From contig OZ246960.1 in assembly GCA_965232235.1 (NCBI GenBank), positions 1,132,479 to 1,196,478 on the forward strand: a DNA stretch of 64,000 bases, written 5' to 3'. Position numbers and translations under genes: made by a program. Position 1 is the stretch's first letter. Each line of letters opens with the position of its first letter. Shown here in pieces: positions 4,941-36,846 of this stretch. The notes under the pieces are model-generated. The model did no database searches. It was not told the origin of the DNA and was given only the letters and a program-made list of their open reading frames with translations. This DNA comes from Candidatus Poribacteria bacterium (GTDB taxonomy: Bacteria; Poribacteria; WGA-4E; JAJDTR01).

Positions 4941-6482
4941 ATGAATTTTCGACAGAAAATCGCGCTTAGTTTTTTTCTCTCTGTCGTTTTGATGGGCGTT
5001 GCGTTTGCGCAGCTTGTTGATATACCCGACCCAAACTTGCGACGGGCGGTCAGGGAGGTGCTGAATCTGCCGAATGATTCCCAAGTCACTGCTCAAGATA
5101 TGCGGCGGTTGACCGGGCTAAAGGCACAAAACACCGGTATAGAAAGCCTTGACGGATTGGAGTATGCGATGGACTTGAGGCGCTTGTGGGTAGACAGCAA
5201 TCCCTTGTCCGACTTGTCGCCAATCTCAAACTGCTCCAAATTGGAAGACTTGGGCATTAGCGGTTGCGGGATTTCGGATATATCTGCGTTGCAAGGTCTT
5301 GTAAATCTACTCGGTGTGAATATCGGAGGGAATAGCATCCATGATTTGCAACCCTTAAAACCTTTGATAAATTTGGAACATCTGCTCATGTACCAAAATC
5401 CGATATCGGACATCGCGCCGTTGGTAAACTTGCGGAAGTTGAAAAGGCTATGGGCATGGAACTGTCAGGTTACTGATATTAGCGCGTTACAATATCTTTC
5501 TGAACTGACTGAGTTAAATTTAGGCGGCAACCAAATAGTCGATATCGCCCCGCTTGTCGACCTCACACAGATAACACGATTATCATTGAACCATAACCGA
5601 ATCGCCGATGTTGTTCCCTTGGCGAGTTTGACCAAGCTAGAGTGGTTAGAGATTCAAAACAATAATATTGCGGACTACAGTCCGCTAGATTCACTCCCGC
5701 TAGACCATTTCTTTTTCGACCAAGAATGCGATATGCCGCCGCTTCCTCTTGAGGCCCGGTTGGAGAATAAAACCTTTCCCTCTCCCTACGCCGCCGAATG
5801 GACCTACGGAGTCGATCCGCGTTTAGATTTGGTGCTTGGGTATATATTAGACGATTTCGGTTTGCACCACCTGAATGACGGGGGAGTGGTTGGCACCATG
5901 GAATACGCTATCCAGAAACGAGACGAACTCATGGCAACGAACCCAAACATGGTGTTTCTTGTCAACATTTCAATGAGAGGAGAATCAATTAACCTTTATG
6001 GTGAGGATTGGCCATTTTGGATTCGGGATGCAAGTGGGAATATTGTTCCGGAAGGCACCGAAGGCGCCGGCTTCATGGGCTTCACACATCCGGCCGTTCA
6101 GGACATTATTGTTGAACAAGCCATCGCGGTTTCTAAATGTGGTCTATTCGATGGAATTGTGTTTGATTGGTGGCACGAGACTGGCTCCATTCTTGCCGAT
6201 CATAACTCTGGTTGGCGCGAAGGATATAGAGGCCTCGACGCCGAGCAGCGCGCCCGCGATGTAATCCTTCAGCGCATCAGGGCCGAAACCAGGCACGACT
6301 TTCTGATTCAGGTGAACTCTAATCGAGGCAAAATTCCGCGTACGGCTCCTTACATCAATGGTCTGACTATGGAGACGGGAATCCCCGACTGGTTCACGAC
6401 GGACGACAAACTTAACAAGGCACTCTTAGAAACTGAAGGTACCCTCTTGTGGGCGGAGGAAAACCTCAGGGAGCCCTTATAA
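4941..6482 (+). CDS. secreted leucine-rich-repeat (internalin-like) protein with a C-terminal hydrolase-like domain; 5' part of a frameshifted LRR-dockerin gene
   Basis: RBS 'AAAAGGAGAAATTG' then ATG at 4941. Signal peptide 'MNFRQKIALSFFLSVVLMGVAFAQ'. About 10 LRR units of 22 aa ('LxxLxxLxLxxNxIxDIxPL'). The globular domain that follows has no assigned family. Confidence 0.7.
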   Translation: MNFRQKIALSFFLSVVLMGVAFAQLVDIPDPNLRRAVREVLNLPNDSQVTAQDMRRLTGLKAQNTGIESLDGLEYAMDLRRLWVDSNPLSDLSPISNCSKLEDLGISGCGISDISALQGLVNLLGVNIGGNSIHDLQPLKPLINLEHLLMYQNPISDIAPLVNLRKLKRLWAWNCQVTDISALQYLSELTELNLGGNQIVDIAPLVDLTQITRLSLNHNRIADVVPLASLTKLEWLEIQNNNIADYSPLDSLPLDHFFFDQECDMPPLPLEARLENKTFPSPYAAEWTYGVDPRLDLVLGYILDDFGLHHLNDGGVVGTMEYAIQKRDELMATNPNMVFLVNISMRGESINLYGEDWPFWIRDASGNIVPEGTEGAGFMGFTHPAVQDIIVEQAIAVSKCGLFDGIVFDWWHETGSILADHNSGWREGYRGLDAEQRARDVILQRIRAETRHDFLIQVNSNRGKIPRTAPYINGLTMETGIPDWFTTDDKLNKALLETEGTLLWAEENLREPL

Positions 6483-7027
6483 ACGGAGTAGCGGGTCAGG
6501 CCCTGTACGGCGAAGCCGAGGATAGCCCGAATAATCGCCGATGGGCGCGCGTCCTGCTTACCCTGAGCCTTACTCACGCAGATGGGTTTGCCGTTTATCA
6601 AACGCATGCTGGATTCGGTGCGAGTGCATGGATTGACTTATTCGATGCCGACCTCGGCCGCCCTGTCGGGCCCAAAGCCGCGCTCTACGAAGAACACATT
6701 CCCGGCCTTTACATCCGGGAATTCACGAACGGCTGGGCAGTGTATAACCACAGCGGCGAGGCGCAGGTGATTACGTTGCCGGAAGAGGTGCAGGGGGTCG
6801 CCAGCGGGCTGGTAAACGTGGAGCACGCGCTTCCGAACTTGGACGGCGAGATGTATTTGCGGGCGACGCCGAAGAATCCGGCGGATGTGAACGGGGACGG
6901 GGTGGTGAATATTTTGGATTTGACGCTGGTGGCGCAGGGCTTCGGGACGGATAGTTTGCAGGGAGATGTGAATGGAGATGGGGTAGTGAATGTGTTCGAT
7001 CTGGTGTTTGTGGCAAATCAATTCTAA
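6437..7027 (+). pseudogene. 3' part of the same LRR gene in another frame, ending in a dockerin repeat pair (frameshift near 6437-6482)
   Basis: Frame opens at 6437 directly after an in-frame TGA. Ends with 'DVNGDGVVNILDLTLVAQGFG...GDVNGDGVVNVFDLVFVANQF', a type-I dockerin signature. It overlaps the 3' end of the LRR ORF in a different frame. Confidence 0.5.
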
Positions 7028-7038
7028 TAGGGGTATAA

Positions 7039-7275: not shown

Positions 7276-7688
7276 GCCACCTTTTGTTTTCTCCAAAGGG
7301 CCTCATAAGTCGGTCCTCCATATGGGTGTATTGCGGCTTAAATTTGACAATCCTCATCGCGTCGATTGTTGCCTGTCACGCCATCAGCGGATTGGGAATA
7401 GCGCTATTTCTGTGGTGGTTCCTAATGTCTACTTATACGAGTAACATGGTAGAGATAAAGCGTTTTCATGACCGCGACAAATCGGGTTGGTGGGTATTGG
7501 CCGGATTTGTGCCAGTGTTCAACACTTTGGTCGGTACCGAATTGCTATTTCTACGGGTCACAAAAGGTCCGAACCGTTACGGCACGGATCCTCTGGCGAA
7601 CAGGGATGTCCGGTCGAGAGGAAGCAACCGGGCTATTGAGGATTATGGTGTCGAGGGACGTTGCAGTTGGGTTTTTGCTGCGCTATGA
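7272..7688 (+). CDS. DUF805-family inner-membrane protein
   Basis: 'IKRFHDRDKSGWWVLAGFVPVFN' matches the DUF805 'RRLHDxGxSGWW' signature, flanked by hydrophobic helices. The start codon is uncertain (TTG at 7272 or an internal ATG). Confidence 0.5.
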   Translation: MSHLLFSPKGLISRSSIWVYCGLNLTILIASIVACHAISGLGIALFLWWFLMSTYTSNMVEIKRFHDRDKSGWWVLAGFVPVFNTLVGTELLFLRVTKGPNRYGTDPLANRDVRSRGSNRAIEDYGVEGRCSWVFAAL

Positions 7689-7795
7689 TGATCTCTATCG
7701 CATTCGCTATTCGCTCATTTGATCACTCCTACGAAGAGGGTAGGAGATTGGGTTCCCTGCGTGGGGGTGTCTCCATACTACGCTATACGTCGGGA

Positions 7796-8743
7796 TTAGA
7801 GGTGGTAAGATACGGTCATTGATAGGGTGGGGCCGACTTCAAACGCATCGCCCTCCTCCGACAGCACCCGGCTCTGAATCGGCAATATCAGGTTCAGCCG
7901 GACGGGCACGCCAAATCTCCGATCCGGCGCGGCGCCGAGCTGCACGGCATTGTAAATCAAACCCGAGTTGATGTCCCGGTTCCCATCCCAGTAGGCGTAG
8001 GATTGGAATAATCCCAGATGGCTCGCATGAAGCGACAACCAATCCCCAACCTGATATCGTATGCCTACGGTTTCCGTGACATCCACGGGACCGCGATAAG
8101 TCTTGCCGTTCTCGTAGACCGGAAACTGCCCATGTATTGACGCGTTGAGCGAGAGCCCGTCAGACAACAATGTTTCATAGTGCAGCGCCGCCGACGGATC
8201 GAAAGTGCCGGTGCCGAACTGGATGTGGAGGTGCTTTTGACCGGCGTCTCCCAGCCTGTACGGATCCTCCTCTGTCGCCCCGATCGGTATGCTGGCTCCG
8301 ACCGAAACCATCAAGCGATCCGTGTCGCGCAGCAGGTTCGTGATCCTGTGTGAAACGAGCAGACGCGCATCCGCAAATCCGCGGTACACCTCGTCGCGGT
8401 GGTGTATGTCTTGGTTGCGTAGAATTGCAGCCCGATCTTCCTGCGTCACGGTAGCAATCTCGTCAATGAAAGCGTCCTGATCCTTGATGTCGTAGGGCAG
8501 ACTCAACGCGATATCCCAATCAGCCGCGAGCCGGTAGGCTATATCCAGTTGAAAGCGAAAGAAATCCAAGGAGACGTTGTGGCGATGCAACGGGCCCTGA
8601 ATCACGTCGCCCGTTGAAGATAGCCCCCTGGTCTCCAAGTGTCCCCCGTTGGCGTCAAATCCCCTCAGCAGGTAGAGGGATAATCGGAGTTTGCTATCAT
8701 CGGAAGTCGAACCGACTTCTCCAATCCCGCTCCGCGGAATCAC
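7796..8743 (-). pseudogene. outer-membrane beta-barrel-like protein separated from its signal peptide by two in-frame TGA codons
   Basis: The body (315 aa, alternating amphipathic strands, begins GTG 'VIPRSG') is in frame with an upstream signal peptide 'MRRINLASTIILITSLLFSPLSYAQES' at 8765-8845. They are separated by TGA-GGG-GCG-TGA. Confidence 0.4.
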
Positions 8744-8849: not shown

Positions 8850-9830
8850 TGTCTCCAATAGACTGCAGAACTGTTACTTGGATTCACCCCATCCTCAATT
8901 CTTGGTTCCGCTCGCCACACATCTATGCGGCTTCCACTATTCCACCAATCAGCCGAACCCGTAGGTTGGGTTGAACTATCCTGCCCATTAACACAGTACA
9001 GTTGGTAGGAGCGACCTCCTGGTCGCGATTCGATTGAACCAACCGACTGATTACGGAGAGCGATAGAAAATTCCCCGCCGAATGAACACTGCCCTCCGTA
9101 GGGGCGAGGTTCCCTCGCCCGATATTTGGCAGGTGAAATCAACCGAGCCCGTAGGTTGGATGGTGACACGCGAATCCCAACGGTAGGAGATCAACTGAGT
9201 GGATAGCGAAGGCGATAGAGATCCATCAAGCGAGTGAATAACGAGGGCGATAGAATTCCTCTCCGAATCGCGACCCCTTACGGTGCTATAGGGATCCTGA
9301 ATAGCGCGCGCGATAGAGTTCTCGTGCCTACCATCTCTTGTAGGGTGCGCATGGCGCACCAGCCTTGGAGAGCGCCAGCGGCGCGAAAGGTGCATAGCAA
9401 CACCAAGCCGCTCTAAATCAAAGCCCCAGAGGGGCGACAGAGATCCATCAACCGACTGATTAAGAAGCGCGGTAGCTAACCCCGAAAGAAATCCGACACA
9501 AATTCCCAAGCCGAATGAACAATGCCCTCCGTAGGGGCGAGGTTCCCTCGCCCGATATTTGGCAGGTGATATCAACCAAGCCTGTAGGTTGGGTTGTGCC
9601 ACGCGAAACCCAACGGTAGGAGATTAAACGAGTGAATAACGAGTGCGATAGAATTCTTCTCCGAATCGCGACCTCTTTCGCTCCAGCGGAGCGTCATGTC
9701 GATAGAACGCGGCTATATAACTGTTTTCCGCTCCAGCGGAGCGCCATGCGAGGCCGTCTCAATTGTTCTCCTCAAACTATTGAATCCCCTATCGATTCCA
9801 ATCGTCAATCATAAACTCAAAGATGAAAGC
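8850..9830. repeat. repeat-dense non-coding region (about 1 kb) built from short interspersed words and GTAGG-headed hairpins
   Basis: Multiple copies of 'GATCAAxCGAxTGxATA', 'GCGATAGA(G/A)(A/T)TC', 'CCGTAGGGGCGAGGTTCCCTCGCCCGATATTTGGCAGGTGA' (twice, at ~9100 and ~9530) and 'GTAGGTTGGGTTG'. The ORFs called here (8762-9169, 9051-9602) are built from repeats and are not credible genes. Confidence 0.6.
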
Positions 9831-12469: not shown

Positions 12470-12498
12470 GTTGGCATCGGATCCAAAATGTGATACGA
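12470..12498 (+). promoter_or_regulatory. conserved promoter of PhyH paralog 1
   Basis: TTGGCA (12470-12475), 17-nt spacer, TACGAT (12493-12498). About 30 of 40 nt are shared with the upstream region of paralog 2 at 20768-20796. Confidence 0.45.
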
Positions 12499-12578
12499 TG
12501 GTTTTGTGTTTGCCGAGGGGCATCAAGATGGCGGCGATGCCGCAGTTCGGCAGGCTAAACGACATGAGGAGGATTAAC

Positions 12579-13388
12579 ATGAGTGAACATCTCATCTCGT
12601 CAAAGGAAATGGTGCAGTTTGTAGCTTCAGGTTACCTGAAGTTCGAGAGGATGGTGCCGAAGGATGTGTCGGACGCATGTCTGGAGGACATGAAGAATCA
12701 CCGCGGCTATCTCGAGGTGGGCACGCCGTTTGAGGAGACGTGGCCCAAGGGGACGCCGCTCGGCGATATGTTCCGTTTGCCGCAGGTCAAAGGGCTGATC
12801 CATTCGTTGGTCGGTCCAAATCCGGTCTATGACCATCACGCGGTGCATCTGCAGCGGGCGAACAGTATGAAGGGACCGGACACGCACCAAGACTCGGTCA
12901 TCGATTTTCGAGAGAACTATTTCGACATCCAGTTGTCGTTCTTCGCGCACGACACGCCCGACGAGATGGGTGGGACGTTCCTGATCCCGGGATCGCATTT
13001 CCGAAATGTCCGCACCGGCGAGATCCGCGGCTATCAGCAGATCCCCGGCAAGATCTGGGCGACATGCCCCGCCGGCACGATGTACGTCTGGAACACGCGA
13101 GTCTGGCACGGCGCGCGAAGCAACCATACCGATCGGGATCGCTACATGTACAAGGTGCGGCTCAACCCGTCGCGTCCCCAGGTGCGCAATTTCGATACCT
13201 CCGATATCGACGACCCGAAGATTGGAAGCATTCTCTCGAAGGGTCACGGCTGGGAAGGCAGCGACATGCGGTATGAGCTGATGAAGCGCGTCCAGTTGTG
13301 GCGGTACGTCTCCGATCAGCCCGACTACGATATCGGCGAGCGTTTCATGCGCAGGATTGAGTATCAGCCGCAGCGCATGTCGGCATGA
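12579..13388 (+). CDS. phytanoyl-CoA dioxygenase (PhyH) family Fe(II)/2-oxoglutarate oxygenase, paralog 1
   Basis: GAGGAGG RBS then ATG 12579. 269 aa. 'HQDSVIDF' HxD facial triad plus distal 'WHGARSNH'. About 90% identical to 21202-22011. Confidence 0.6.
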   Translation: MSEHLISSKEMVQFVASGYLKFERMVPKDVSDACLEDMKNHRGYLEVGTPFEETWPKGTPLGDMFRLPQVKGLIHSLVGPNPVYDHHAVHLQRANSMKGPDTHQDSVIDFRENYFDIQLSFFAHDTPDEMGGTFLIPGSHFRNVRTGEIRGYQQIPGKIWATCPAGTMYVWNTRVWHGARSNHTDRDRYMYKVRLNPSRPQVRNFDTSDIDDPKIGSILSKGHGWEGSDMRYELMKRVQLWRYVSDQPDYDIGERFMRRIEYQPQRMSA

Positions 13389-13532: not shown

Positions 13533-13557
13533 CCAAATCGTGTAGCTCCAGGCGATT

Positions 13558-16113
13558 TCATTTACTGACCAACATCCTCCGACTCGCCCTAAAATCCCCT
13601 GCCGCAAGCGTGCAAAAATACACGCCCGTCGCAACAACTTCCCCGCGTTCATTCCGTCCGTCCCAATACGCCGCGCGGTCCCGGCTCCGATACACACCCG
13701 CCGGCTGGAAGCCCACCGCCAATGTCCGAACCACCCGCCCGTGCACGTCATAGACTGTCAGCCTGATGTCCGCCGCTTCCCTCAGCTGATACGGTATCCA
13801 CGTTTCAGGATTGAACGGATTCGGGTAATTCGGCAACAGAGCCGTCTCGCTCGGAATGCTTGACTCCCGTGTCAACGTCATCAAGAGCCGTTCAAGCGCG
13901 AGAATCCCACTCTGTACGGTTGGATCTGCCGTCTCCAACCCCTCAGCATCAGCCAACCACCTCCGTACAGTCTCCGCCTTGAGCGCCCCAAGTCCATCCG
14001 CGCGGCTGGGCGGCGACGCCGCCGCATGTCCGAACGCCCCCGCCACCAACTCCAAATCGTGAAGGTTCACCACCCCATCCCCGTTGATATCCGCGTCGTT
14101 TTGTCCCATTTGCCCAACATTGGCGGCGACCAACACCAAGTCCAGGATGTTTACCACGCCATCCTGATTTACATCCGTTGCGAGCGCTTTAACATTGATT
14201 GTATCGCGTTTCAAGTCCCATAGTAGAATTGTGCCATCGTGACTCCCACTAGCAAGCGTTAGCCCATCGGGAGAGAAGGCAACGGAATCGACACTACTCG
14301 ATTGCCCCTCAAGGGTGCGCAGGTGTTCGCCAGTACGGACATCCCATAAACGGATCGTGCCGCGGTCGCCTACCCGCCAACTCCCACTCCCACTAGCAAG
14401 CGTGGATCCATCGGGAGAGAACGCAATGCAATGGATCCCCGACCAACGCGTGTGTGTAATGAAGATCCGCCGGTGTTCACTCGTACGGGTATCCCACAGC
14501 CGAATCGTATTGTCCCGTCCCCCGCTTGCAAGCGTAAGTCCATCCGGCGAAAACGCAACGGCAGTGACCTGGCGCGTATGTCCCTCAAGGATTTGCAAGC
14601 CTTTCCCAGTTCGTGCATCCCACAAACGTATCGTTGTATCGCGGCTCTCAAAGGCACCGCTGCCACTGGCAAGTTTCAAACGATCGGGAGAAAATGCCAG
14701 GGTAGTGACATCTCCCCTATGCCCCCTAAGAATCTGAAGGATTTCCCCGGTGCGGGTATCCCACAACCGGATTTTATTGTCCTTGCCGCCGCTAGCAAGC
14801 GTCAACCCATCGGGAGAGAAGACCACAGAATACACGCTAGAATGGACATTGTACCTATTGCCCTCAAGGGTATGTAGGTCGCCCCAGGTACGAGTATCCC
14901 ACAACCGAATCGTGTTGTCGCCCCACCCACTTCCGCTGGCAAGCGTTAATCCATCCGGGGAAAAAGCAACTGAATGAACCTGACCTGTATGTCCTTTGAG
15001 CGCGTGAAGCCTTTCTCCGGTATGGACATTCCACAGGCGAATCGTACCGTCCGAACTCCCGGCGATTGTAAGCCCATCGGGGGAAAATGCAACGGAGGTG
15101 ACTGGAACCCCATGTCCATCCAAGGTCAGCAGGGATTCGCCAGTGCGAACATCCCAAAATCGAACTGTATTGTCCCAACGCCCGATGGCAAGCGGGAGTC
15201 CGTCAGGGGAGAACGCTAGGGACAGAACCGAATGTCCTTCATAGGTCTGCAGACCTTCCCCAGTACGGACGTTCCAAAACCGAATTGTATTGTCTCTACT
15301 CCCGCAGACTAGTGTTAACCCATCGGGAGAGAATGCAAGGGACGTGACCCCATCTGTATGCTCTTGAAGAGTCAGCAAGCCTTCGCCGGTGCGCACATCC
15401 CACAACCGGATTGTATTGTCGTCACTCGCACTGGCAAGCGTAAATCCATCCGGAGAGAACACTACCGATGTAACCGAATCTGTGTGCCTCTCCAAGGTGC
15501 GAAGGCTTTCGCCAGTCCGGAAATCCCATAGCTGAATTGTATCGTCGCGACTTGCGCTGGCGAGTGTGCGCCTGTCAGGGGAAAACGCAACGGAGGTAAC
15601 CACATCGGTATGCCCCTCAAGGGTTCGCAGGTGCGTCCCTGACCGCGTGTCCCACAAGCGGATTGTATCGTCCCAACCCCCGCTGGCTAACGTAGATCCA
15701 TCCGGGGAGAAGGTTACAGACGTGACCCAAATCCCATGGTCGAGGGTGTGTCTGTGTTCCCCGGTGCGGGCATCCCACAAAAGAATCGTATCATCCCAAC
15801 TCCCACCGGCAAGGGTGAGGCCATCGGGCGAGAACGCGACAGAACTGACCCAACCCGTATGCCCCGTGAGCAAGGAAAGCTCGGCACCGGAATTCGCATC
15901 ATACAGCCAAATACCGATGCTGGTTGCGACCGCTAGCAGGGCGCCGTCTGGCGAATATGCAACATTGCCAAATATCCAACCTTTGCCCAGTCGCATTTTG
16001 GCGCCTTCGGGGAGTTCCCATTGTTGTGGGTCTTGGGCGAGGGTGTTGAGTGTGAGAAGGATGGCGAGGAAGGGAAGGATTAGCTTGGAAATTATGTGTT
16101 TTCTGTTCAACAT
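13558..16113 (-). CDS. secreted WD40 beta-propeller protein with dockerin repeat pair and T9SS C-terminal sorting domain
   Basis: Signal peptide 'MLNRKHIISKLILPFLAILLTLNTLAQ'. About 18 WD40 units ('GHTxxVxSVAFSPDGxTLASGSxDxTIRLWD'). Dockerin 'DVNQDGVVNILDLVLVA...DINGDGVVNLHDLELVA'. C-terminus 'LLPNYPNPFNPETWIPYQL...AAYWDGRN...GVYFCTL' is a Por/T9SS CTD. Confidence 0.85.
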   Translation of the reverse strand: MLNRKHIISKLILPFLAILLTLNTLAQDPQQWELPEGAKMRLGKGWIFGNVAYSPDGALLAVATSIGIWLYDANSGAELSLLTGHTGWVSSVAFSPDGLTLAGGSWDDTILLWDARTGEHRHTLDHGIWVTSVTFSPDGSTLASGGWDDTIRLWDTRSGTHLRTLEGHTDVVTSVAFSPDRRTLASASRDDTIQLWDFRTGESLRTLERHTDSVTSVVFSPDGFTLASASDDNTIRLWDVRTGEGLLTLQEHTDGVTSLAFSPDGLTLVCGSRDNTIRFWNVRTGEGLQTYEGHSVLSLAFSPDGLPLAIGRWDNTVRFWDVRTGESLLTLDGHGVPVTSVAFSPDGLTIAGSSDGTIRLWNVHTGERLHALKGHTGQVHSVAFSPDGLTLASGSGWGDNTIRLWDTRTWGDLHTLEGNRYNVHSSVYSVVFSPDGLTLASGGKDNKIRLWDTRTGEILQILRGHRGDVTTLAFSPDRLKLASGSGAFESRDTTIRLWDARTGKGLQILEGHTRQVTAVAFSPDGLTLASGGRDNTIRLWDTRTSEHRRIFITHTRWSGIHCIAFSPDGSTLASGSGSWRVGDRGTIRLWDVRTGEHLRTLEGQSSSVDSVAFSPDGLTLASGSHDGTILLWDLKRDTINVKALATDVNQDGVVNILDLVLVAANVGQMGQNDADINGDGVVNLHDLELVAGAFGHAAASPPSRADGLGALKAETVRRWLADAEGLETADPTVQSGILALERLLMTLTRESSIPSETALLPNYPNPFNPETWIPYQLREAADIRLTVYDVHGRVVRTLAVGFQPAGVYRSRDRAAYWDGRNERGEVVATGVYFCTLAAGDFRASRRMLVSK

Positions 16114-16503: not shown

Positions 16504-19029
16504 CTACTTACTGACGAGCATCCTGCGAGTGGCGGTGAAAGTGCCGGCATTTAAGGTGCAAAAATACACGCCCGTCGCAACAACTTCCCAGCGTTCATTC
16601 CGTCCGTCCCAATACGCCGCGCGGTCCCGGCTCCGATACACACCCGCCGGCTGGAAGCCCACCGCCAATGTCCGAACCACCCGCCCGTGCACGTCATAGA
16701 CCGTCAGCCTGATGTCCGCCGCTTCCCTCAACTGATACGGCAACCACGTCTCCGGATTGAACGGATTCGGGTAATTCGGCAACAGCGCCGTCTCGACCGG
16801 AATGCTTGACTCCCGTGTCAGTGTTGTCAAAAGCCGTTCAAGCGCGATAATCCCTCTCTTCACCGTTGGATCTGCCGTCTCCAACCCCTCGGCATCAGCC
16901 AACCACCTCCGTACATCTTCCGCCGTGATTGCCCCAAGTCCCTCCGCACGGCTGGGCGCCGCCGCCGCATGTCCAAACGCCACCGCAACCAACTCCAAAT
17001 CGTGAAGGTTGACAACCCCATCCCCGTTGACATCCGCGCCATCTCCGCCCAACTCCCCGAAACGTGCGGCGACCAACACTAAATCTAGGATGCTCACGAT
17101 TCCGTCGTGATTGACATCTGCCGATTTTGCTCGAATGAGGTCCGCGTGAGGGGTTACATCCCAAAGCAGGATTGCCCCATCCAAGCTGCCGCTGGCAAGC
17201 GTCAATCCGTCCGGGTTGAAAGCGGCGCTCCTCACTTCAGAGACATGTCCCTCGAACGTACCCAGCATATCCCCTGTAGCCGAATCCCACAGCCGGATGG
17301 TATGGTCGCTCGATCCACTGGCAAGCATCGCGCCATCCGGACTGAAGGTAACGCTCTCGATATAACCCGTATGTCCTTTCAGCGTCCGCAGCAGCGCACC
17401 CCTGCTCGTGTTCCACAGCCGCACGTTACGGTCACGATTCCCGCTGGCAAGCGTCAAGCCGTCGGGGCTGAATGCCAAACTCGTCACATTGGAGCTGTGT
17501 CCTTGAAGCGTCCGCCGGCGAGCACCTGTGACGGCATCCCATAGATGGATGGCGCCGTGGAAACTCCCGCTGGCAAGCGTCCTGCCATCGGGTGAATAGG
17601 CTACGGAAAGGACGATGTCCGTGTTGTCGTCAATCAGGCGCAGTTGCTCCCCCGAGGACACATCCCATACACGGACGGTGCTGTCCCAACCTCCACTTAC
17701 AAGGGTCAATCCGTCGGAACGGTACGCCACACCGGTAACCCAATGCGAATGTCCCCCAAGTGTCCGCCGCGCCCCGGTAACGGCATCCCAGAGATGTAGG
17801 CTGCCGTCCCTGCTCCCACCGGCAAACGTCGAGCCGTCGGGACTGTACGCCACGCAAATAATCTCCTCCTCGCCCGCCTGAAGCATTCGCACCTGCGCGC
17901 CCGCTGTTGTATCCCATAGACGGATGGCGCCGTCCCAACTCCCACTGATTACCTTATTCCCGTCCGGGCTGTACGCGATGCTGTTGATCCAAGATGAATA
18001 CCCGTTGATTGATCGCGCCAGATCGCCCGTCATTGTATTCCACAGGCGGATGGAATGGTCCCAACCCATGCTTACGAGTGTTTTCCCGTCCGGGCTGAAC
18101 GCAACCATCGGGTTATACGCACGACTGCTCCCGCTGGTGCCGGCGGCATCCTCTAACGTAAATAGTTCATCACCAGTGTCCGGGTTCCAGAGACTGGCCG
18201 TGCCGAACCAGCCCCCACTGGCGAGCATCTTTCCGTTGGGGCTGTATGCCAGGCTATTAACTGAAATCCTGTCCGATTCAAGCGTGCGAACGTGTTCACC
18301 GGTGCGGGCATCCCACAATCGAATGCCGCCAACCCAGCTCCCGCTTGCGAGTGCATTTCCATCCGGACTGTACGCCACGCTATGAACCTCCCACGTATGC
18401 CCCTCCTCAAGCGTCTGTTTGTGCGCCCCCGTACTCACGTCCCACAGACGGACCTCGCTCGAACTCCCGCTGGCGAGAGTTCCTCCGTCCAGACTAAACG
18501 CCACCGTAGGCACCATCCAGTCATGCCCTTCAAGCGCCCGTAGGTGCTCGCCTGTTCCCACATCCCATAGATGGATGGTGCCCTCAAAACTCCCGCACGC
18601 AACCGTTCCGCCATCCGGACTGAACGCCAGGCTTAGCAAGCCGGATTTGATCCTCTCAAGCGTCTGTTTATGCGCACCTGTGACCGCGTCCCAGAGGTAG
18701 ATTCCGTCCCACCTCACAGTCGCCAGCGTCGATCCATCCGGACTGAATGCCATATTCTCGACCCACGCCGTGCTTTCGTCAAGCAGGGCAATCTCTTGAA
18801 AGGTTGTTGTGTCGTAGAACCAAATTCCGAGGCTGCTTGCCACGGCGAGGCGTGCGCCATCCGGGGAGTAGGCGACGGGACCGGTCAGAGCGCCTTTGCC
18901 CAGCCGCATGGTGGCTCCTTCCGGCAACCCCCATGGCGATACGTCTTGGGCGAAGGCGTTGACCAAAATCAGGACAGAAAGCAACACAAGGCTAGATGAG
19001 ATTAACCGCGCTTTTTCGATTGACATCAT
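16504..19029 (-). CDS. secreted WD40 beta-propeller protein with dockerin repeat pair and T9SS C-terminal sorting domain (tandem paralog)
   Basis: 841 aa. Signal peptide 'MMSIEKARLISSSLVLLSVLILVNAFAQ'. Same architecture as 13558-16113. The 3' ~470 nt are nearly identical to those of that paralog. Confidence 0.85.
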   Translation of the reverse strand: MMSIEKARLISSSLVLLSVLILVNAFAQDVSPWGLPEGATMRLGKGALTGPVAYSPDGARLAVASSLGIWFYDTTTFQEIALLDESTAWVENMAFSPDGSTLATVRWDGIYLWDAVTGAHKQTLERIKSGLLSLAFSPDGGTVACGSFEGTIHLWDVGTGEHLRALEGHDWMVPTVAFSLDGGTLASGSSSEVRLWDVSTGAHKQTLEEGHTWEVHSVAYSPDGNALASGSWVGGIRLWDARTGEHVRTLESDRISVNSLAYSPNGKMLASGGWFGTASLWNPDTGDELFTLEDAAGTSGSSRAYNPMVAFSPDGKTLVSMGWDHSIRLWNTMTGDLARSINGYSSWINSIAYSPDGNKVISGSWDGAIRLWDTTAGAQVRMLQAGEEEIICVAYSPDGSTFAGGSRDGSLHLWDAVTGARRTLGGHSHWVTGVAYRSDGLTLVSGGWDSTVRVWDVSSGEQLRLIDDNTDIVLSVAYSPDGRTLASGSFHGAIHLWDAVTGARRRTLQGHSSNVTSLAFSPDGLTLASGNRDRNVRLWNTSRGALLRTLKGHTGYIESVTFSPDGAMLASGSSDHTIRLWDSATGDMLGTFEGHVSEVRSAAFNPDGLTLASGSLDGAILLWDVTPHADLIRAKSADVNHDGIVSILDLVLVAARFGELGGDGADVNGDGVVNLHDLELVAVAFGHAAAAPSRAEGLGAITAEDVRRWLADAEGLETADPTVKRGIIALERLLTTLTRESSIPVETALLPNYPNPFNPETWLPYQLREAADIRLTVYDVHGRVVRTLAVGFQPAGVYRSRDRAAYWDGRNERWEVVATGVYFCTLNAGTFTATRRMLVSK

Positions 19030-27262: not shown

Positions 27263-27588
27263 GTAACTTTCGACAATAAATCTCGCATTTTAACGAAATC
27301 ACGGCGCGCTAGCTACGCGGCCGTCCTGCTGGATTGACAAATCCAGCAAACCTCTCTCTAGCTACTCAGCTTTCATTCTTTCGCTCCAGAGGATCGGAAT
27401 GTCTGTAGAACACCGATTGCTTCAATATTCTGCACAGAGGAGATAAAGTGACCGATTAGGAAGAGCGATAGAGTTCCCATAGAAAATCCCATTACGCATA
27501 GCTTTACACCTGTATCGTGTTATCCGAATCGGAGCACCTTGCGTAAGTTCTGTGAACAAGAAGCTGGTTAACCACAAGGAGACACTCT

Positions 27589-30500
27589 ATGTTCAAAAAT
27601 CATTCTATTTCTGCCTTGATTTGCTTACTGTTCCTCACTGTAGGTTTTCAACATGTGTCCGCCCAATCACAGTTAGCCCAAGACACCTAAGCCATCTTTG
27701 AAGCGACTTGCCTGAACTGCCACGGCCCCGATGGCGCCTTTCGAGAAACACTCCTCATGGAACACAGCGAGCTTATTGACGGAGGCACTGTTGTTCCCGG
27801 AAATCCGAATGCCTCCGAGTTGTACAAGCGCCTCCTCGGTCCGACCGATAACGGCGTACAGATGCCGTTCGGTCAACCCCAGCTGCCCGCTCAATCCATT
27901 GACACAATCCGACGTTGGATTTTAGCCGGCGCACCCGAATGGTCGACAACTCGCATCACCGATGGTCGCTTTATCTCTCCTGCAGAAATTCTTGATACCA
28001 TTGAGACCCACCTCAACACCCTCTCATCGTTTGACCGCGCTTTTGCCCGATACTTCACACTCACCCATCTCTACAACGCGGGCGAGACACTCGAGATACT
28101 CAGTGAGTACCGCAATGCGCTCAACAAACTGGTCAACAGTCTTTCATGGGGAAGTACTATCACCAACCCGAAGCCCATCAACCCCCAAGCTACAATCTAC
28201 TACATCGACCTGCGGCATTACGAATGGGATGTCAACGACGGCTGGACGAAGATTGAGGAAGCGTATCCCTATCACATCTCGTTTCCTGAACATCTTGGGC
28301 TGCGTAATCAACTGGGGCGCTTGCAGGCACAGATGAAGACCGATGTGCCATCCGTGCATGTCGACTGGTTTATTGCGAACGCATCCACTCCTCCATTATA
28401 CCACGCCCTGCTTTCACTGCCGTTGACGGACAGGGACTTGGAGACCCGGCTGGAGGTTGATGTCGCTCGAAACCTTATCAACGCGCCCGGAGTTCGCGTG
28501 TGGCGGGCGGGGTTCAACAATTCCGGCGTCTCAAATCACAATCGCGTCGTAGAACGCCACATTTCTCGTTATGGAGCCTATTGGAAAAGCTACGACTTTG
28601 CAGGCAGTGTCGGGACACAGAATATCTTAACCAATCCTCTCTCGTTCACGCACGATGGCGGGGAGGCAATCTTCAATCTCCCAAACGGGTTGCAAGGTTA
28701 CTACCTTGCCAACTCCTCCGGTTTCCGGTTAGACGAAGCGCCGATAAACATTGTATCCAACCCGGCTGCCAGCGACCCCACGGTGCGCAACGGCATCTCC
28801 TGTATCGGTTGCCATACGGAGGGCATGAAAACATTTGACGACGAGGTGCGATCGGTAATTGAAAGCAATGCCAATCCGCCTTACAACAAAGCGCAGGCGC
28901 TGCGACTCTATGTGGAACAGTCAGTCATGGATGCCCGTGTAAGTGAAGACATGGACACATACAGGGTAGCGCTTGAAGCCACGGGTGGTACGTTTGGCGG
29001 TGTTGAGCCGGTTTCACGTTTCCACGAAGCGTTTCAGGGACCGATTGATGCAGCGTATGCTGCTGCTGTAGTCGGGTTGCAGACTGACACCTTCCTCGCA
29101 AGGGTACGTGAGAAAACCGGACTTCAGAACGTTGGCTTGCTGGCGCTGGACAACCCAAACGGGAGTGTGAAGCGAGACACCTGGACCTCTAGTTTTAGAG
29201 ACATAATTTCCGCATTGGACTACCCGGATCGGGTTGGAGAACCCCCGGTTGTGACGCAGCCCGATGTGTTACCGGGTGGGTATGTCCATATTCCGGACCC
29301 GAACCTTCGCACCTTCATCGCCGCTGAACTTGACAAACGCCCCAATGCTCCGATAACAGCGGAGGAGATGAAACGATTAAAAAACCTAGATCTGTGCAAG
29401 GGTGGGTGCGAAAAGGGTATCCGAGATTTGACAGGAGTGCAGTTTGCGATAAATCTAAGTCGGATAAATATATCACATAATCAGGTCTCCGACCTCTCAC
29501 CCATAGCGGGTTTAATCGAGTTGCGCGAACTCTGGATTACCGACAACCCTGTATCCGATATATCCCCTGTGAGAGGGTTAACCAACCTTACTCACCTAGG
29601 ATTTGAGCGCTGTCAGGTGTCCGATATATCTCCCGTGAAAGGTTTAATCAACCTCACTCACCTATACGTTCTGAGAAATACCATAACTGACCTGTCGCCG
29701 GTAGCGGGTTTAATTGAATTGCGCGAGCTCTTGACTCTTAATAACCTCTTTTCCGATATATCTCCCGTAAGAAACCTGACAAAACTCGTTCACTTAAATT
29801 TCGATAACACTTTGGTATCCGATATATCCGCTCTTGCGGGACTCATCAATTTGGAGCTTTTGGGTTTTACCAGTGCCCAAGTCTCCGATCTATCGCCGCT
29901 CGCGGGATTGATAAATCTGAGACATCTAAATATTCATCATAACTTCATATCCGACCTGTCCGCACTTACTGAATTAGTCGAATTGACGCATTTAGATTTT
30001 AGAGACAATCTCATTTCGGACTTAACTCCGTGTTCAGGCTTAACCAAATTGGTAGAATTGGAGCTTGATGGTAACAGAATATCGGATGTATCGCCCCTTG
30101 CAGGACTAACCGGGTTAAATCGTCTGGACATTTCATCCAATGCCATATCGGATGTATCGCCCCTTGCAGGCTTGACCAACTTAAAATGGTTAAGGGTTGC
30201 AGACAACGACATCTCGGATGTGTCGCCGCTTGCGAGGTTAACCAACCTGAGGTGGCTGGGGGTCTATAACAACAGAATCACTGACCTGTCACCTCTGAAA
30301 GGGTTACGCGAAAATACAACTCTGCTTTGGCACGGTAATCCGGTATTTCCCACAGACGCGCCGAAAATCGACGCCTCCTGGTTATGGGTTGTATTACCGT
30401 ACGTCCAGCCGAGTGGCAGTGAGGATTTACTATCAAAAGCGAGTGGTGGGACGGTGACAGAGGTGGAGGTCGCTACCCACGGCGCAATAGAGGGACAAGC

Positions 30501-31887
30501 TGTCGGCGATGACGTATGGACCTCCCGCAGACTCGCGCCTACGGGGTGGAACAACATTGACCTGATGCTTGGTAACCGCGAGGACACTTTCCGTTTTTCC
30601 CACATGCTTTACGGTACTGTATCCCTTTATTCACCGCGGGAGCAGGAAACGAACATGTACGTCGGAAGCCATAACGATTTCAAGGTCTGGCTCAACGGGG
30701 CTTTGATTTACCAGTCTTTGCGCTACCATTCGAGTGCGGATTACACAGATTTTCTCCCGGTCACGCTGGAGCAGGGAAGAAATGTGTTGTTGGTAGCGGT
30801 TGAGGCGAACTATAATTCCTTTTTCGGATTTGAATCAGGCACCGAATATACAGTGGCAACTGGTATCGGCTACGCCTTTTCTGAAACACCAATTCACATC
30901 GGCGATACCTTTACCTTCGATGTCCGTGCCGAGAATGTCTCCAACTTGGCGGGCTGGCAGTTCGATATCGCCTTCAATCCTGCCGTCCTCGAAGCGATTG
31001 AAATAAGCGAAGGCGATTTCCTGAAGACCGATGGCGGAGCGACTTTCTTCCAGAGCGGACGCATTGACAATGCGGAAGGAAAGATCACGGGGCTTAGTGG
31101 CGCGCGATTTGGGGACCTCGGAGTCAGCGGAAGCGGTTCCGTGCTTCAGGTGAGATTCAAGGCAATATCTGAAGGTGAGGCGCCAATAGCATTGCAGAAC
31201 TTCCTGTTCGGCTCTATCACGGAGGAAAGCATTAACGCGGCACCCCTTGAAATCCGAATCACCGTGCAGGATCGGCTACTGACCGGGGATGTAAACCGCG
31301 ACGGGGTCGTCAATATTCTCGATTTGATTCGCGTCGCGCGCTTGTTGGGACAAAGCGTAGCCGCTGACTCACCGGTGGATGTTAACGGCGACGGGATTAT
31401 CAACATCTTCGATCTCACGCTCGTGGCGCAGGGCATTGGGGGTGCCGCCGCACCCGCAGTTGCGACAGGGCGCGCCGATACGGCGACCATAGAGGCATGG
31501 ATTACACTCGCACGGCTTGAAGATGACGCTTCGATTTCTTTTCGGCAGGGCATTGCGAATCTTGAAAGTCTTTTAGCCTCGTTCATTGTTCCAGAAGAGA
31601 CGGCGTTGCTCGCCAACTATCCGAATCCGTTCAATCCTGAAACCTGGATACCCTACCAGTTGGCATCCCCGTCAGAGGTGACGCTCAAAATTTACGATAT
31701 GAACGGGAGAGTGGTTCGACGTTTGAATATGGGGCATCAGACGGCAGGGATGTACCGGAATCGCAACCGGGCGGCGTATTGGGACGGTCGGAACCAGAGT
31801 GGAGAATTCGTCGCTAGCGGTTTATATTTCTATACACTGAAGACAGGAAAGTTCGCGGCAACCCGCAAGATGCTGATAAGGAAATAG
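27589..31887 (+). CDS. giant secreted multidomain protein: signal peptide, PSCyt1-like CxxCH domain, second CxxCH region, LRR block, cohesin-like module, dockerin, T9SS CTD
   Basis: Signal peptide 'MFKNHSISALICLLFLTVGFQHVSAQ' (27589-) is in frame with the body 27691-31887 but separated by one TAA (27688-27690). The track ORF starts at 27757 (1376 aa), the first downstream ATG. Motifs: 'CLNCHG...VVPGNPNASELYKRL...MPFG' (planctomycete cytochrome-C-like), 'CIGCHTEG', about 14 LRRs ('LxxLxxLxxLxIxxNxISDLSPLAGL'), cohesin-like 'GDTFTFDVRAENVSNLAGWQFDIAFNPAVLEAIEISEGDF', dockerin 'DVNRDGVVNILDL...DVNGDGIINIFDL', and the Por CTD. Confidence 0.7.
30880..31270 (+). other. cohesin-like module within the giant protein
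   Basis: 'IHIGDTFTFDVRAENVSNLAGWQFDIAFNPAVLEAIEISEGDFL...GSVLQVRFKAISEGEAPIAL' follows the type-I cohesin pattern 'GDTVxVPVxxxNVxNIAGFQFDLxYDPSVLE'. Confidence 0.55.
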
Positions 31888-34815: not shown

Positions 34816-36846
34816 ATGAAAACACGACATTTTCGAGCCACGATTTTCCTGTCAATCTGTCTTGCTCTACCGTTAACCGCATCGGCACAAGTCGTAGATG
34901 TCCCGGACTCCAACCTCCGCACCGTGATCGAGAAGGCGCTGAGATTGGCGCCGGGCGACCCGATTACCCAGGCGAAGATGATGGCTTTGAATCGTCTTGA
35001 CGCTAGAAACGCCAATATTAGCAACTTAACCGGACTGGAGGTTGCCATCAACCTGACAAACCTGAACCTTGCGAGTAACATGGTATCAGATATATCGCGA
35101 GTGGCGACCTTAACCAATCTGACAGATTTGAATCTTGCGAACAACATGGTATCGGACCTGTCGCCTGTAGCGGGTTTAATCAACCTGACAAACCTGAATC
35201 TTGCCAAAAACGCGATATCGAACATATCACCCGTGTCGGGCTTACCCAACTTGACGGCGTTGGCTATCGACATCAACACAGTATCGGATATATCACCCGT
35301 ATCGAGCTTAATCAACCTGACAGCGCTGGATTTTCAGAACAACACAATAACCGATATATCGCCTGTGACGAACTTGACCAAATTGGTATTTCTGGTTCTT
35401 CAGAATAACACGATATCGGATATATCACCTGTGGCGGGTTTAACCAACCTGACACTACTATTTCTAGGGAACAACACGATATCGGACATATCACCTCTGG
35501 TGGAAAACACGGGGTTGGGGAGTGGAGACAGGGTTGACCTGCATGGAAACGCCCTCAACTACGCATCCATCCACACGCACGTTCCAACCTTAGAAGAAAG
35601 AGGCGTCGAAATAATCTTCGACAACCGAACACCTCGGAGCATTCGCATCGTCTCGGGCGATGATCAAGAGGGATCGTCCGGTTCAGCGCTCGCAAGCCCG
35701 TGTATCGTTGAAGTGCAGGATGGGAATAGTGTAGCGTTCGAGGGGGTGCCGGTTACATTCGCCGTCACGGCGGGCGGCGGGACACTCAGCGCCGCTAACA
35801 CGACGACAGACGCCAACGGTAGGGCGGAGAGCACCCTTACATTAGGGCCAAATTCAGGCGTGAACACAGTCACGGATTCAGTTACAGGGATTCAGGAGGA
35901 GCCAACGTTCAACGCCGAAGGAATCCGGATACCCAAGGCGTTTTGGATAATCTTCGGGATTGACCAACAAGGGCTGGTCGGTGAAGCGCTTGCTAATCCG
36001 TTTATCGTTGAAGTGAGAGACCAATCCGGCGAACCCATGTCGGGTGCGCAGGTCATGTTCTCCGTCACGGCGGGCGGCGGGACGCTGAGTGTGACAACTG
36101 CCGCAACTGATAGCAATGGTCGGGTAGAGAGTGTCCTAACATTGGGACCGGATCCGGGAACAAACACCGTGACTGTATCTGTGACAGGGATCGAAGAGGA
36201 GCAGTCTGTTAGTGCCACTGCCGAACCTCCCCCGATACCGGAGGATGTAAATAGGGACGATGTGGTGAATATCTTGGATTTGGTGGCGGTCGCGGCGAAC
36301 CTCGGTAATATGGGGACCGACTTGGCGGCGGATGTCAACGGGGATGGGGTTGTGAACATCCTGGATTTAGTGGTCGTAGCGGGTGCGCTTGGGAACGCGG
36401 CGGCGCCAGCTTCGGATCCACGAGCATTGGCGATGCTGACGGCTGCGGAAGTGGGTCGCTGGTTGGCTCAAGCGCAAACACTGGACTTGACCGATGGAAC
36501 AACCCAAATGGGTGTGCTGGTGCTAGAGCAACTCATGGCTGCCTTGACACCGGAGGAGACGCTATTGTTGCCGAACTATCCGAATCCGTTCAACCCGGAG
36601 ACGTGGATACCTTACCAACTCTCACGCGATGCCGAGGTCACGCTGTCGATTTATGATGCCGACGGTTTCATGGTTCGTCGACTGGAGTTGGGGCATCAAC
36701 TAGTGGGCTATTACAGGGATCGGGGTAAGGCGGTGTATTGGGATGGCCGCAACGATGTTGGTGAAAGGGTGGCAAGCGGCGTGTATTTCTATCACTTGGC
36801 AGCAGGGGATATCTCCGCCACGCGGAAGATGCTCATCCTGAAATAG
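34816..36846 (+). CDS. secreted LRR protein with two bacterial Ig-like (Big) domains, dockerin and T9SS CTD
   Basis: RBS 'GGAGATAAATCT' then ATG 34816. Signal peptide 'MKTRHFRATIFLSICLALPLTASAQ'. About 9 LRRs, two Big-like repeats ('VTFAVTAGGGTLS...TDANGRAESTLTLGP'), dockerin 'DVNRDDVVNILDL...DVNGDGVVNILDL', and the Por CTD. Confidence 0.8.
   Translation: MKTRHFRATIFLSICLALPLTASAQVVDVPDSNLRTVIEKALRLAPGDPITQAKMMALNRLDARNANISNLTGLEVAINLTNLNLASNMVSDISRVATLTNLTDLNLANNMVSDLSPVAGLINLTNLNLAKNAISNISPVSGLPNLTALAIDINTVSDISPVSSLINLTALDFQNNTITDISPVTNLTKLVFLVLQNNTISDISPVAGLTNLTLLFLGNNTISDISPLVENTGLGSGDRVDLHGNALNYASIHTHVPTLEERGVEIIFDNRTPRSIRIVSGDDQEGSSGSALASPCIVEVQDGNSVAFEGVPVTFAVTAGGGTLSAANTTTDANGRAESTLTLGPNSGVNTVTDSVTGIQEEPTFNAEGIRIPKAFWIIFGIDQQGLVGEALANPFIVEVRDQSGEPMSGAQVMFSVTAGGGTLSVTTAATDSNGRVESVLTLGPDPGTNTVTVSVTGIEEEQSVSATAEPPPIPEDVNRDDVVNILDLVAVAANLGNMGTDLAADVNGDGVVNILDLVVVAGALGNAAAPASDPRALAMLTAAEVGRWLAQAQTLDLTDGTTQMGVLVLEQLMAALTPEETLLLPNYPNPFNPETWIPYQLSRDAEVTLSIYDADGFMVRRLELGHQLVGYYRDRGKAVYWDGRNDVGERVASGVYFYHLAAGDISATRKMLILK

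Follow-up and report, generated by a model that had tools for sequence, protein, structure and literature searches.

A 64,000-nucleotide stretch of a genome from Poribacteria, a sponge symbiont (the whole stretch is called the window here), encodes members of a lineage-wide expanded set of Sec-exported "eukaryote-like" repeat proteins (WD40, LRR, Ig-like), and the tails of these proteins, with dockerins, one cohesin and a type-IX-like C-terminal sorting domain (CTD), suggest a snap-together protein coat. In the reading preferred here, the CTD drives export and putative Ca-dependent cohesin-dockerin contacts assemble host-interaction proteins at the cell surface; we give it an even chance of being right. 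Eukaryote-like repeat proteins are a hallmark of sponge symbionts; a role in recognizing the host and in evading phagocytosis is attributed to them. A preliminary description of the window had proposed such a scaffold: the canonical dockerins, the predicted cohesin fold and the abundance of cohesins in the lineage favor it, but the local gene set is not self-contained.

Dockerin genes of the window

Five genes (A to E) each carry a dockerin above the gathering cutoff of 22.9 bits (PF00404, Dockerin_1), as had been described, and the gene boundaries reported earlier are accurate: 4941, 16113, 27589 and 34816 are ATGs that yield signal peptides. Read by eye, A, B, C and E have Sec signal peptides with a hydrophobic core and an AxA-type site. 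By Pfam, the passengers are WD40 propellers in B and C, and A, D and E are LRR proteins. Common to B, C, D and E is a cassette in which the dockerin leads into a two-helix hairpin and then into the CTD.

Gene B (13558..16113, minus strand) encodes a signal peptide, about 13 WD40 repeats, a dockerin (14035-14184; 34.8 bits), a two-helix linker (13870-14034) and a type A CTD (13561-13854; TIGR04183, 23.9 bits). Gene C (16504..19029, minus strand), annotated with Pfam, NCBIfam and local HMMs, has a signal peptide, one or more WD40 propellers, a dockerin (16978-17124; 36.5 bits), a linker (16816-16977) and a CTD (16507-16800; TIGR04183, 28.1 bits). The cassettes of B and C are 86.6% identical in DNA, whereas their WD40 parts can barely be aligned. 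Gene E (34816..36846, plus strand) runs from a signal peptide through an LRR region and two Big_1 domains to a dockerin (36235-36387; 32.2-33.7 bits), linker (36388-36549) and CTD (36550-36843; TIGR04183, 25.9 bits); ENA contig ERZ18545484:ptg010092l, from a strain with 99% identity, has a copy that is called intact. In exact look-ups of window proteins the H+-PPase was matched on this contig, while the protein of gene C, a methyltransferase, PhyH and VWA gave no contig; the matched contig covers neither the stop codon of gene D nor gene A.

Gene D (27589..31887, plus strand) is, as had been claimed, the one cohesin gene (PF00963, 39.8 bits against a cutoff of 24.1). It opens with an SD, the ATG at 27589 and a signal peptide whose hydrophobic core and AxA-type site (also read by eye) lie upstream of an in-frame TAA at 27688-27690. 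The preliminary description had placed the gene correctly but overlooked this stop, which is a Tyr in orthologues; full-length orthologues with 48-69% identity occur in Poribacteria MAGs. Two CxxCH sites follow (PSCyt1-like, 27709-27723; second, 28801-28815), then an LRR region, a jelly-roll-like domain, the cohesin (about 30862-31269), the dockerin (31279-31434; 37.6 bits), the linker (31435-31590) and the CTD (31591-31884; TIGR04183, 38.9 bits). Pfam detected no CBM family in gene D. In an AF2 model the cohesin has pLDDT 85-96 across the module (pTM of the single chain is 0.50, and the model carries no inter-domain information), and the top 50 Foldseek matches in the PDB (best E 3.3e-9) are without exception cohesins or cohesin-like modules, those at about 3e-9 being type II cohesins, Archaeoglobus fulgidus 2xdh and Clostridium perfringens cohesin-like modules. 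The model thus bears out the assignment, with a predicted nine-stranded beta-sandwich (jelly-roll) like that of solved cohesins. A lineage-specific cohesin HMM found no cohesin beyond that of D in the 64 kb.

Gene A (4941..7027, plus strand) combines a signal peptide, an LRR region (LRR_4), a GHL15-like domain and a C-terminal dockerin (6878-7021; Dockerin_1, 46.0 bits) and has no CTD. A real frameshift near 6455-6480 divides the gene between two frames (4941-6482 and 6437-7027), and its sequence stops directly past the second dockerin repeat. Three homologues (L082, L083, L086) are intact single ORFs that also end right after the dockerin; the family is normally dockerin-terminal, without a CTD. 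In L082 the intact A-like gene is immediately followed downstream by a D-like cohesin gene. The GHL15-like domain is weak in the repaired window copy (20.8 bits) and above cutoff in the intact homologue L083 (44.8 bits), so not all passengers are non-enzymatic: the earlier statement that the passengers are WD40 or LRR modules rather than CAZymes holds for most of them, which are interaction modules, but not for the gene A family.

In this genome D, with its nonsense codon, and A, with its frameshift, both look inactive, and the dockerins of B, C and E would therefore need cohesin partners from beyond the window. Since a stop interrupts the single cohesin gene and the only dockerin gene without a CTD is frameshifted, the local genes do not make up a working system by themselves. 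For the unannotated neighbors at 7796-8743 and 22250-23884, PDB sequence searches returned no relevant match.

Dockerins and cohesins across the lineage

Each dockerin consists of two tandem F-hand segments; in both, a loop that has its Ca ligands at positions 1, 3, 5 and 12 leads into a helix. Across 319 distinct dockerins the ligands (D/N/D/D) are 94-100% conserved and the helix positions vary; the dockerin is 32-38% identical to matching type I dockerins. Judged by sequence, these are canonical, type-I-like dockerins with two intact predicted Ca2+ loops. Chance EF-hand loops were considered as an explanation and rejected: profile scores, segment duplication, the fold match and ligand conservation all speak against them.

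The cassette is hugely expanded in Poribacteria: the protein clusters that contain it number at least 7,588, and the phylum is the named source of 77 of the 80 best genomic loci. In those 80 loci a cohesin stands 3-26 residues (median about 12) before the dockerin in 41 of about 105 cassette ORFs (about 40%), and the subtypes of cohesin and dockerin go together, 48 of 50 GWQF cohesins adjoining 30-spacing dockerins. A representative library was searched with a profile of cohesin plus cassette, so that its global counts (138,998 / 22,059 / 2,723) are not a cohesin census; its top 146 sequences were analyzed with local HMMs. PF00963 passes in 49 of 51 related proteins at E<=1e-5, the 51 being a subset of 144 representatives scanned with Pfam. 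A cohesin-only word-index search gave 67 short fragments, with no value as a census. Some relatives carry several cohesins and end in the CTD: one has WD40 and five cohesins (P0194), two have four (P0330 and P0266) and one has three (P0210, on a 6.2 Mb contig beside two cohesin-dockerin-CTD genes). The library has no taxonomy; P0210 and P0202 are tentatively tied to Poribacteria, partly via neighboring genes. Putative cohesin partners are plentiful in the lineage, and these multi-cohesin proteins (3-5 cohesins, with the shared CTD at the end) probably count among them.

The closeness of cohesin and dockerin can be read in another way. The two modules might bind each other within one polypeptide, giving a rigid membrane-proximal stalk and no inter-protein scaffold; the very short spacer and the strict subtype pairing are what such a clasp in cis would produce. 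It leaves unexplained, however, both the dockerin-only proteins (B, C, E and the A family) and the proteins with 3-5 cohesins, which carry one dockerin or none, and a spacer of 3-6 residues may be too short to reach the dockerin-binding face. We consider this reading quite unlikely.

Passenger content bears on a further alternative, a cellulosome-like complex that would bring enzymes for the breakdown of polysaccharides or proteins together on the cell, in the way proposed for Ca. Stygibacter. The GHL15 glycosidase-like domain of the gene A family would fit it, as would the pectate-lyase-like, NPCBM, metallopeptidase or phytase-like modules of some relatives. Binding modules dominate, however: among the best 146 relatives, 45 have LRR and 16 have WD40 passengers, and LDL-receptor-B propellers and other binding modules also occur, while B, C, D and E contain no recognized CAZyme catalytic family. 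The window itself has neither a multi-cohesin scaffoldin (its single cohesin sits in an interrupted gene) nor CAZyme subunits with a scaffoldin CBM, the passengers being WD40, LRR, Big_1 and a cytochrome-like domain, apart from the weak GHL15 match of A. A cellulosome proper was rejected on this passenger content, and a degradative complex in general is highly improbable.

Sorting domain and export

The type A sorting domain of T9SS (NCBIfam TIGR04183, cutoff 23) is found at the extreme C-terminus of B, C, D and E at 23.9-38.9 bits, in agreement with the earlier claim that all but the frameshifted gene end in a T9SS CTD. In Pfam terms the domain passes as FlgD_ig and falls just below cutoff as Por_Secre_tail. 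It folds as an Ig-like beta-sandwich, like T9SS CTDs of known structure, and its best structural and sequence matches are to FlgD and not to the CTDs of Porphyromonas gingivalis. Five further WD40 genes on the minus strand (46414-48363, 49586-51892, 52146-54500, 54460-56790 and 56831-59119), annotated with local HMMs and Pfam (WD40 and FlgD_ig), have a signal peptide and, by comparison of C-terminal sequences, the same CTD as B-E, but no dockerin or linker. These genes serve as an internal control and show the dockerin-linker unit to be optional.

That control bears on the idea that dockerin and hairpin form a Ca2+-stabilized spacer or an extended sorting signal, which binds no cohesin and leaves the cohesins otherwise employed. 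Such a calcium stalk would account for the position of dockerin and hairpin, always immediately before the CTD, and for the 86.6% DNA identity of the B and C cassettes beside diverged passengers, as expected of a sorting element; many non-cellulosomal dockerins of other metagenomic lineages, moreover, have no known partner. However, the five WD40-CTD genes manage without the unit, which sorting therefore does not require; members of the gene A family have a dockerin without any CTD; and cohesins are abundant, adjacent to dockerins and co-vary with them in subtype. On balance the idea seems rather improbable.

The route of export is a separate matter. No T9SS component is encoded within the 64-kb window. 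That the proteins are "T9SS-secreted", as the preliminary description had it, is unproven and derives solely from homology of the sorting domain. Poribacterial WD40 and other eukaryote-like repeat proteins often carry TIGR04183, and their secretion pathway was given as unknown (Kamke et al., 2014; PMC3909097). Poribacteria might have no type IX secretion, the proteins being periplasmic or exported otherwise and the CTD merely a FlgD-like Ig domain. The better match to FlgD would agree with this, as would the report that six incomplete SAGs of Poribacteria yielded no Por structural genes (Kamke et al., 2014) and a literature search in which no paper tied Poribacteria to T9SS machinery. We find this view doubtful too.

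A proposed assembly at the cell surface

The surface coat favored here would be built in the following way. The CTD would take the protein across the outer membrane and then be removed or used as an anchor, as in type IX secretion. T9SS cargo without A-LPS attachment loses its CTD and is released in soluble form (reviewed in PMC5445135), and such loss would leave the dockerin close to a new C-terminus. The dockerin, which by then would lie close to the mature C-terminus or right at it, would bind the cohesins of sister proteins in a Ca2+-dependent manner; candidate carriers are D-type cohesin-dockerin proteins and scaffoldin-like proteins with 3-5 cohesins elsewhere in the genome. Host-interaction modules might thereby be cross-linked into a combinatorial surface coat, in which CTD-less dockerin-terminal proteins (the gene A family) would be held by the non-covalent cohesin-dockerin link only. 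One consideration counts against the coat: a dockerin on a covalently anchored protein would be redundant unless the CTD serves export only. In addition, a cohesin 3-26 residues away could equally bind its own dockerin in cis.

A bolder version can be stated as an "ELP-some", in which cohesin-dockerin tandems and 3-5-cohesin scaffoldins would knit hundreds of WD40, LRR and Ig proteins into a Ca-dependent mesh, with export relying on a TIGR04183-type sorting domain. It is possible, if unlikely; if true, this phylum outside Bacteroidota, for which no T9SS genes have been reported, would have either a T9SS that is highly divergent or a new outer-membrane pathway that depends on the CTD. The coat bears more generally on whether type-IX-like sorting works outside the phyla where it has been shown, and, if it exists, cohesin-dockerin assembly would serve to display interaction domains as well as to build enzyme complexes. 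The conserved cohesin/dockerin/CTD tail offers a concrete, culture-independent handle on the export and presentation of eukaryote-like proteins, with modules that are small and expressible in E. coli.

Comparison with known systems

The literature search found no description of a cohesin-dockerin protein coat for Poribacteria, though the proposal is partly anticipated by two studies. First, the proteins of Kamke et al. (2014) belong to the same phylum and protein class as those of the window (WD40 with TIGR04183); that paper mentions cohesin 0 times and does not describe the dockerin-hairpin-CTD cassette, the cohesin-dockerin tandem or multi-cohesin proteins. Second, an in-silico proposal for Ca. 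Stygibacter (Cloacimonadota) has a cohesin scaffoldin with a T9SS CTD recruit dockerin proteins (PMC8542988), likewise a CTD-anchored scaffoldin outside Firmicutes. In that system hydrolases and peptidases carry the dockerins, CBMs are part of the scaffoldin, and no protein joins a dockerin to a CTD, whereas here dockerin and CTD share one protein and the cargo is eukaryote-like repeats.

The clostridial cellulosome (CipA/SdbA, ScaA/ScaB) uses the same two module families; the poribacterial cohesin model matches type II cohesins, and some of the scaffoldin-like proteins resemble CipA in combining cohesins with one dockerin of another subtype. In contrast to the cellulosome, Poribacteria are presumed Gram-negative, the anchor is a T9SS-like CTD and not SLH domains, the cargo is WD40, LRR or Ig modules and not CAZymes (no CBM3 was seen), and most proteins have a single cohesin fused directly to a dockerin.

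Other CTD proteins share parts of the layout. BspA-family LRR proteins of Bacteroidota and Rhodothermota, with a T9SS CTD, have the signal peptide-LRR-Ig-like-CTD order of gene E; BspA-family genes on a Salinibacter ruber plasmid match the window CTD, but their BLAST matches span only the CTD part of the cassette, with no dockerin or hairpin seen. Rhodothermus marinus Xyn10A is described as needing its CTD for cell anchoring or secretion. In the same, cultured species, a protein of plasmid pRHOM17201 (WP_155816011.1) joins a Reg_prop beta-propeller to Dockerin_1 (44.8 bits), a linker and FlgD_ig/Por_Secre_tail, aligning over 99% of the cassette at 31% identity. It has no adjacent cohesin that could be seen and is an isolated case, with 40 relatives in 5.8 billion proteins against the thousands of clusters of the poribacterial cassette. 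Peer and colleagues reportedly described cohesins and dockerins outside cellulolysis in 2009, sometimes both on one protein. Non-cellulosomal cohesins and dockerins such as A. fulgidus 2xdh and the C. perfringens modules are scattered single cases, whereas in Poribacteria the modules have expanded throughout the phylum, linked to a single sorting domain.

Domain architecture of the dockerin genes

The C-terminal cassette formed by a dockerin, a two-helix hairpin and a type A sorting domain (TIGR04183, here CTD) is real and extends far beyond the window. ORF listing and Pfam/NCBIfam scans recovered the five dockerin genes of the preliminary description (A to E) at the same coordinates, and its domain assignments held: Dockerin_1 scores above the Pfam cutoff in all five, Pfam Cohesin does so solely in D among the five, and TIGR04183 passes the NCBI cutoff in every one of them but A. 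Each gene encodes a signal peptide. In gene A (4941-7027, + strand) LRR and a GHL15-like domain come next, and a dockerin forms the very C-terminus; WD40 propellers follow the signal peptide in B (13558-16113, -) and C (16504-19029, -), and E (34816-36846, +) carries LRR and two Big_1 domains. In gene D (27589-31887, +) a PSCyt1-type CxxCH module follows the signal peptide, then a large region with no assigned domain that contains a second CxxCH; LRR and a jelly-roll-like domain precede the cohesin (about 30862-31269). Orthologues of D form a conserved family and are 48-69% identical over the first 1,038 residues.

The N-terminal region of D contains two CxxCH haem-binding motifs, CLNCH (27709-27723) and CIGCH (28801-28815). 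The first lies inside a PSCyt1 “planctomycete cytochrome C” domain, which is above the Pfam cutoff in the orthologue at homologous locus L070. This suggests that in D a c-type cytochrome, possibly an exported one, is joined with LRR, cohesin and dockerin. The jelly-roll-like domain (W.W...P ... WLNG ...; ~30190-30860, residues ~870-1040) lies directly upstream of the cohesin, and by alignment consensus it precedes the cohesin in many related proteins too; it gives weak Pfam hints at most (BetaGal_ABD2 and RhaB_D2).

The shared cassette

Genes B, C, D and E have in common one C-terminal cassette of ~210 residues: a dockerin of 52 residues with two DxNxDGxxxxxD loops, a two-helix hairpin of ~55 residues with no Pfam match, and a CTD of 98 residues that opens with NYPNPFNPETW(I/L)PYQL. 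HMMs of these parts identified the CTD in a further five WD40 genes of the window (46414-59119, - strand) and found neither dockerin nor hairpin on them, so dockerin and hairpin form an optional unit that the sorting domain does not require. These five genes encode signal peptides and a linker of ~35 residues between propeller and CTD; four of them are contiguous. The cassette DNA of B and C (13558-14171 and 16504-17117) is 86.6% identical over 614 nt, whereas their WD40 parts barely align, a pattern that points to gene conversion or to constraint at the level of the cassette.

Several other features lie among these genes. A dispersed, REP-like-looking repeat of ~35 nt (consensus about GATCAAnnGAGTGrATAgCGArGGCGATAGAGATCC) is intergenic, near gene ends and often in tandem pairs (7681-7732, 9068-9282, 9500-9680, 19171-19198, 20354-20386, 36843-36891, 45082-45123, 46353-46388, 51950-51993 and 59629-59694). 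Three PhyH (phytanoyl-CoA dioxygenase) paralogues sit amid the dockerin genes (12471-13388, 21202-22011 and 23964-24773); the distribution of phyH genes and poribacterial phyH clusters are tabulated in the supplement of Kamke et al. (2014, PMC3909097). Between gene A and a VWA/YfbK gene lies a conserved 315-residue ORF (7796-8743, -) with no Pfam or PDB sequence match, kept syntenic at 81.5% nucleotide identity in OZ240209.1.

Damage to genes A and D

The ORF of gene A is broken across two frames, the shift lying at about 6455-6480. Its homologues on metagenome contigs (loci L082, L083 and L086) are intact single ORFs of ~700 residues that share its layout and end directly after the dockerin. 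One intact homologue passes the GHL15 cutoff; the frame-repaired window copy reaches 20.8 bits over profile positions 46-271. Gene D starts at ATG 27589 behind a good Shine-Dalgarno sequence (AAGGAG, 27576-27581) and a signal peptide follows, after which an in-frame TAA (27688-27690) stands before the first CxxCH, where orthologues have Tyr (...AQDTYAIFE...). Restart at the next ATG (27757) would yield a protein lacking both the signal peptide and the first haem motif. Each lesion could be either a pseudogene mutation or an assembly or base error, and a 99%-identical strain contig spans neither site. As the cohesin gene is broken, the interpretation offered in the preliminary description is weakened within the window. 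At L082 (metagenome contig Ga0209022_1000114, 3411-9680) a D-like cohesin-dockerin-hairpin-CTD gene starts 34 nt behind an intact A-like gene with signal peptide, LRR, GHL15 and dockerin but no CTD; the two may be a cargo-receptor pair.

Distribution in Poribacteria and beyond

A cassette scan of a genome collection gave at least 588 confirmed matches, and 77 of the 80 best loci are titled Candidatus or uncultured Poribacteria. The window itself is syntenic with the Poribacteria MAG OZ240209.1 at 80-88% nucleotide identity, and its neighbouring genes (the three PhyH paralogues along with several beta-propeller proteins of WD40, PQQ and PD40 type) are consistent with that phylum. At E<=1e-10 the cassette profile matches at least 7,588 protein clusters; the named examples among the matches listed are all Poribacteria, and their automatic annotation reads cohesin, dockerin or T9SS type A sorting protein. 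By our own HMMs the best 80 loci (0.92 Mb) hold ~105 cassette ORFs: 52 are dockerin-hairpin-CTD ORFs, 41 have at least one cohesin 3-26 residues upstream of the dockerin, and the CTD stands alone in 15 and dockerins in 7.

From the full HMMER scan the 146 best representatives at 50% identity were taken. The cohesin-dockerin-hairpin-CTD architecture occurs in 84 of them, and at least two cohesins are present in more than 30. Pfam confirmed a WD40 propeller with five cohesins and a CTD (P0194), four cohesins with a CTD (P0330) and three cohesins with hairpin and CTD (P0210); P0266 has four cohesins and a CTD, and P0234 and P0324 five cohesins each. The gene for P0210, on a contig of 6.2 Mb, adjoins two cohesin-dockerin-CTD genes as well as PSCyt/PSD genes of planctomycete type. 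These multi-cohesin proteins probably belong to Poribacteria. Dockerins sampled outside this lineage sit alone at the C-terminus, accompanied by neither hairpin nor CTD, apart from one exception whose relatives are rare (40 matches): a propeller-dockerin-linker-CTD protein on a Rhodothermus marinus plasmid. It is WP_155816011.1 (strain SG0.5JP17-172, pRHOM17201; locus L161, 6336-8726), with propeller, Dockerin_1, linker and T9SS CTD, and in this cultured species the combination of dockerin and CTD might be studied experimentally.

The passengers of the 146 representatives are LRR (45), WD40 (16) and other long N-terminal regions (54). Pfam scans of 51 of these 54 found LDL-receptor class B propellers (10), NPCBM (6) and Vgb_lyase-type propellers (5), together with SGL, Laminin_G_3, cadherin, metallopeptidases and a few pectate-lyase-like or beta-helix modules. 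One rival account of the system is a degradative, cellulosome-like complex. The earlier view that the cargo consists mainly of interaction modules stands across the lineage, with the GHL15 domain of gene A as a local exception.

Module pairing and a proposed assembly

An AF2 model of the last 360 residues of D (36 homologues) has a confident cohesin (pLDDT 85-96), a dockerin at ~80, the hairpin at 60-74 and a CTD beta-sandwich at 70-86; the models are single-chain and uninformative on cohesin-dockerin contact. The top 50 Foldseek matches in the PDB are all cohesin or cohesin-like modules. The structure checks also list the mirolase CTD (6.8) and T9SS translocon-bound CTDs, those of NucA, RemA, FspA and RemZ (5.8-6.2). 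Conservation at the eight Ca-ligand positions is 94-100% across 319 distinct dockerins, and the helix positions are variable. In solved complexes it is the helix positions that are taken to contact cohesins. A rival account reads dockerin and hairpin as a pure calcium stalk. Cohesins fall into two types, GWQF (that of D) and GYQ: 48 of 50 GWQF cohesins adjoin dockerins with loops 30 residues apart, and 65 of 90 GYQ cohesins adjoin dockerins with 28-residue spacing. In dockerin-only proteins the spacing is mostly 28-29 (28 in B and C, 29 in E, 27 in A). This matching of cohesin type with dockerin spacing shows the modules to be co-evolving pairs, and such pairs would fit cis binding, head-to-tail binding or cross-class binding alike, the first of these being the rival account of a cis clasp.

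TIGR04183 is known from poribacterial eukaryote-like proteins, WD40 proteins especially, but Por structural genes were not found and the pathway “remains to be revealed” (Kamke et al., 2014, PMC3909097). Since T9SS may be absent, a non-surface location is a further rival. In our full-text literature searches that paper alone linked Poribacteria to Por/T9SS machinery, and no paper was found that connects either dockerin or cohesin with Poribacteria or sponge symbionts. The account we consider most likely is one of CTD-dependent export followed by surface assembly. The CTD would serve export and possibly anchoring, and its removal would leave the dockerin close to the new C-terminus; dockerins would then bind the cohesins of sister proteins, both D-type and multi-cohesin ones, and so join host-interaction modules in a surface assembly that depends on Ca2+. 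T9SS cargo that is not attached to A-LPS is cleaved at the CTD and released in soluble form (reviewed in PMC5445135), and so a dockerin would gain a purpose on a CTD protein. The interpretation in the preliminary description is reasonable, but two functional steps in it, export by type IX and the binding of cohesin to dockerin, are unproven. The finding makes an open question of sponge symbiosis approachable by simple binding experiments.

Non-cellulosomal cohesins and dockerins in general have long been known. For Cloacimonadota, a cohesin scaffoldin with a T9SS CTD and dockerin-bearing enzymes have already been proposed (PMC8542988). The poribacterial arrangement is a variant of two known kinds of system, cohesin-dockerin assembly and CTD-sorted surface proteins.
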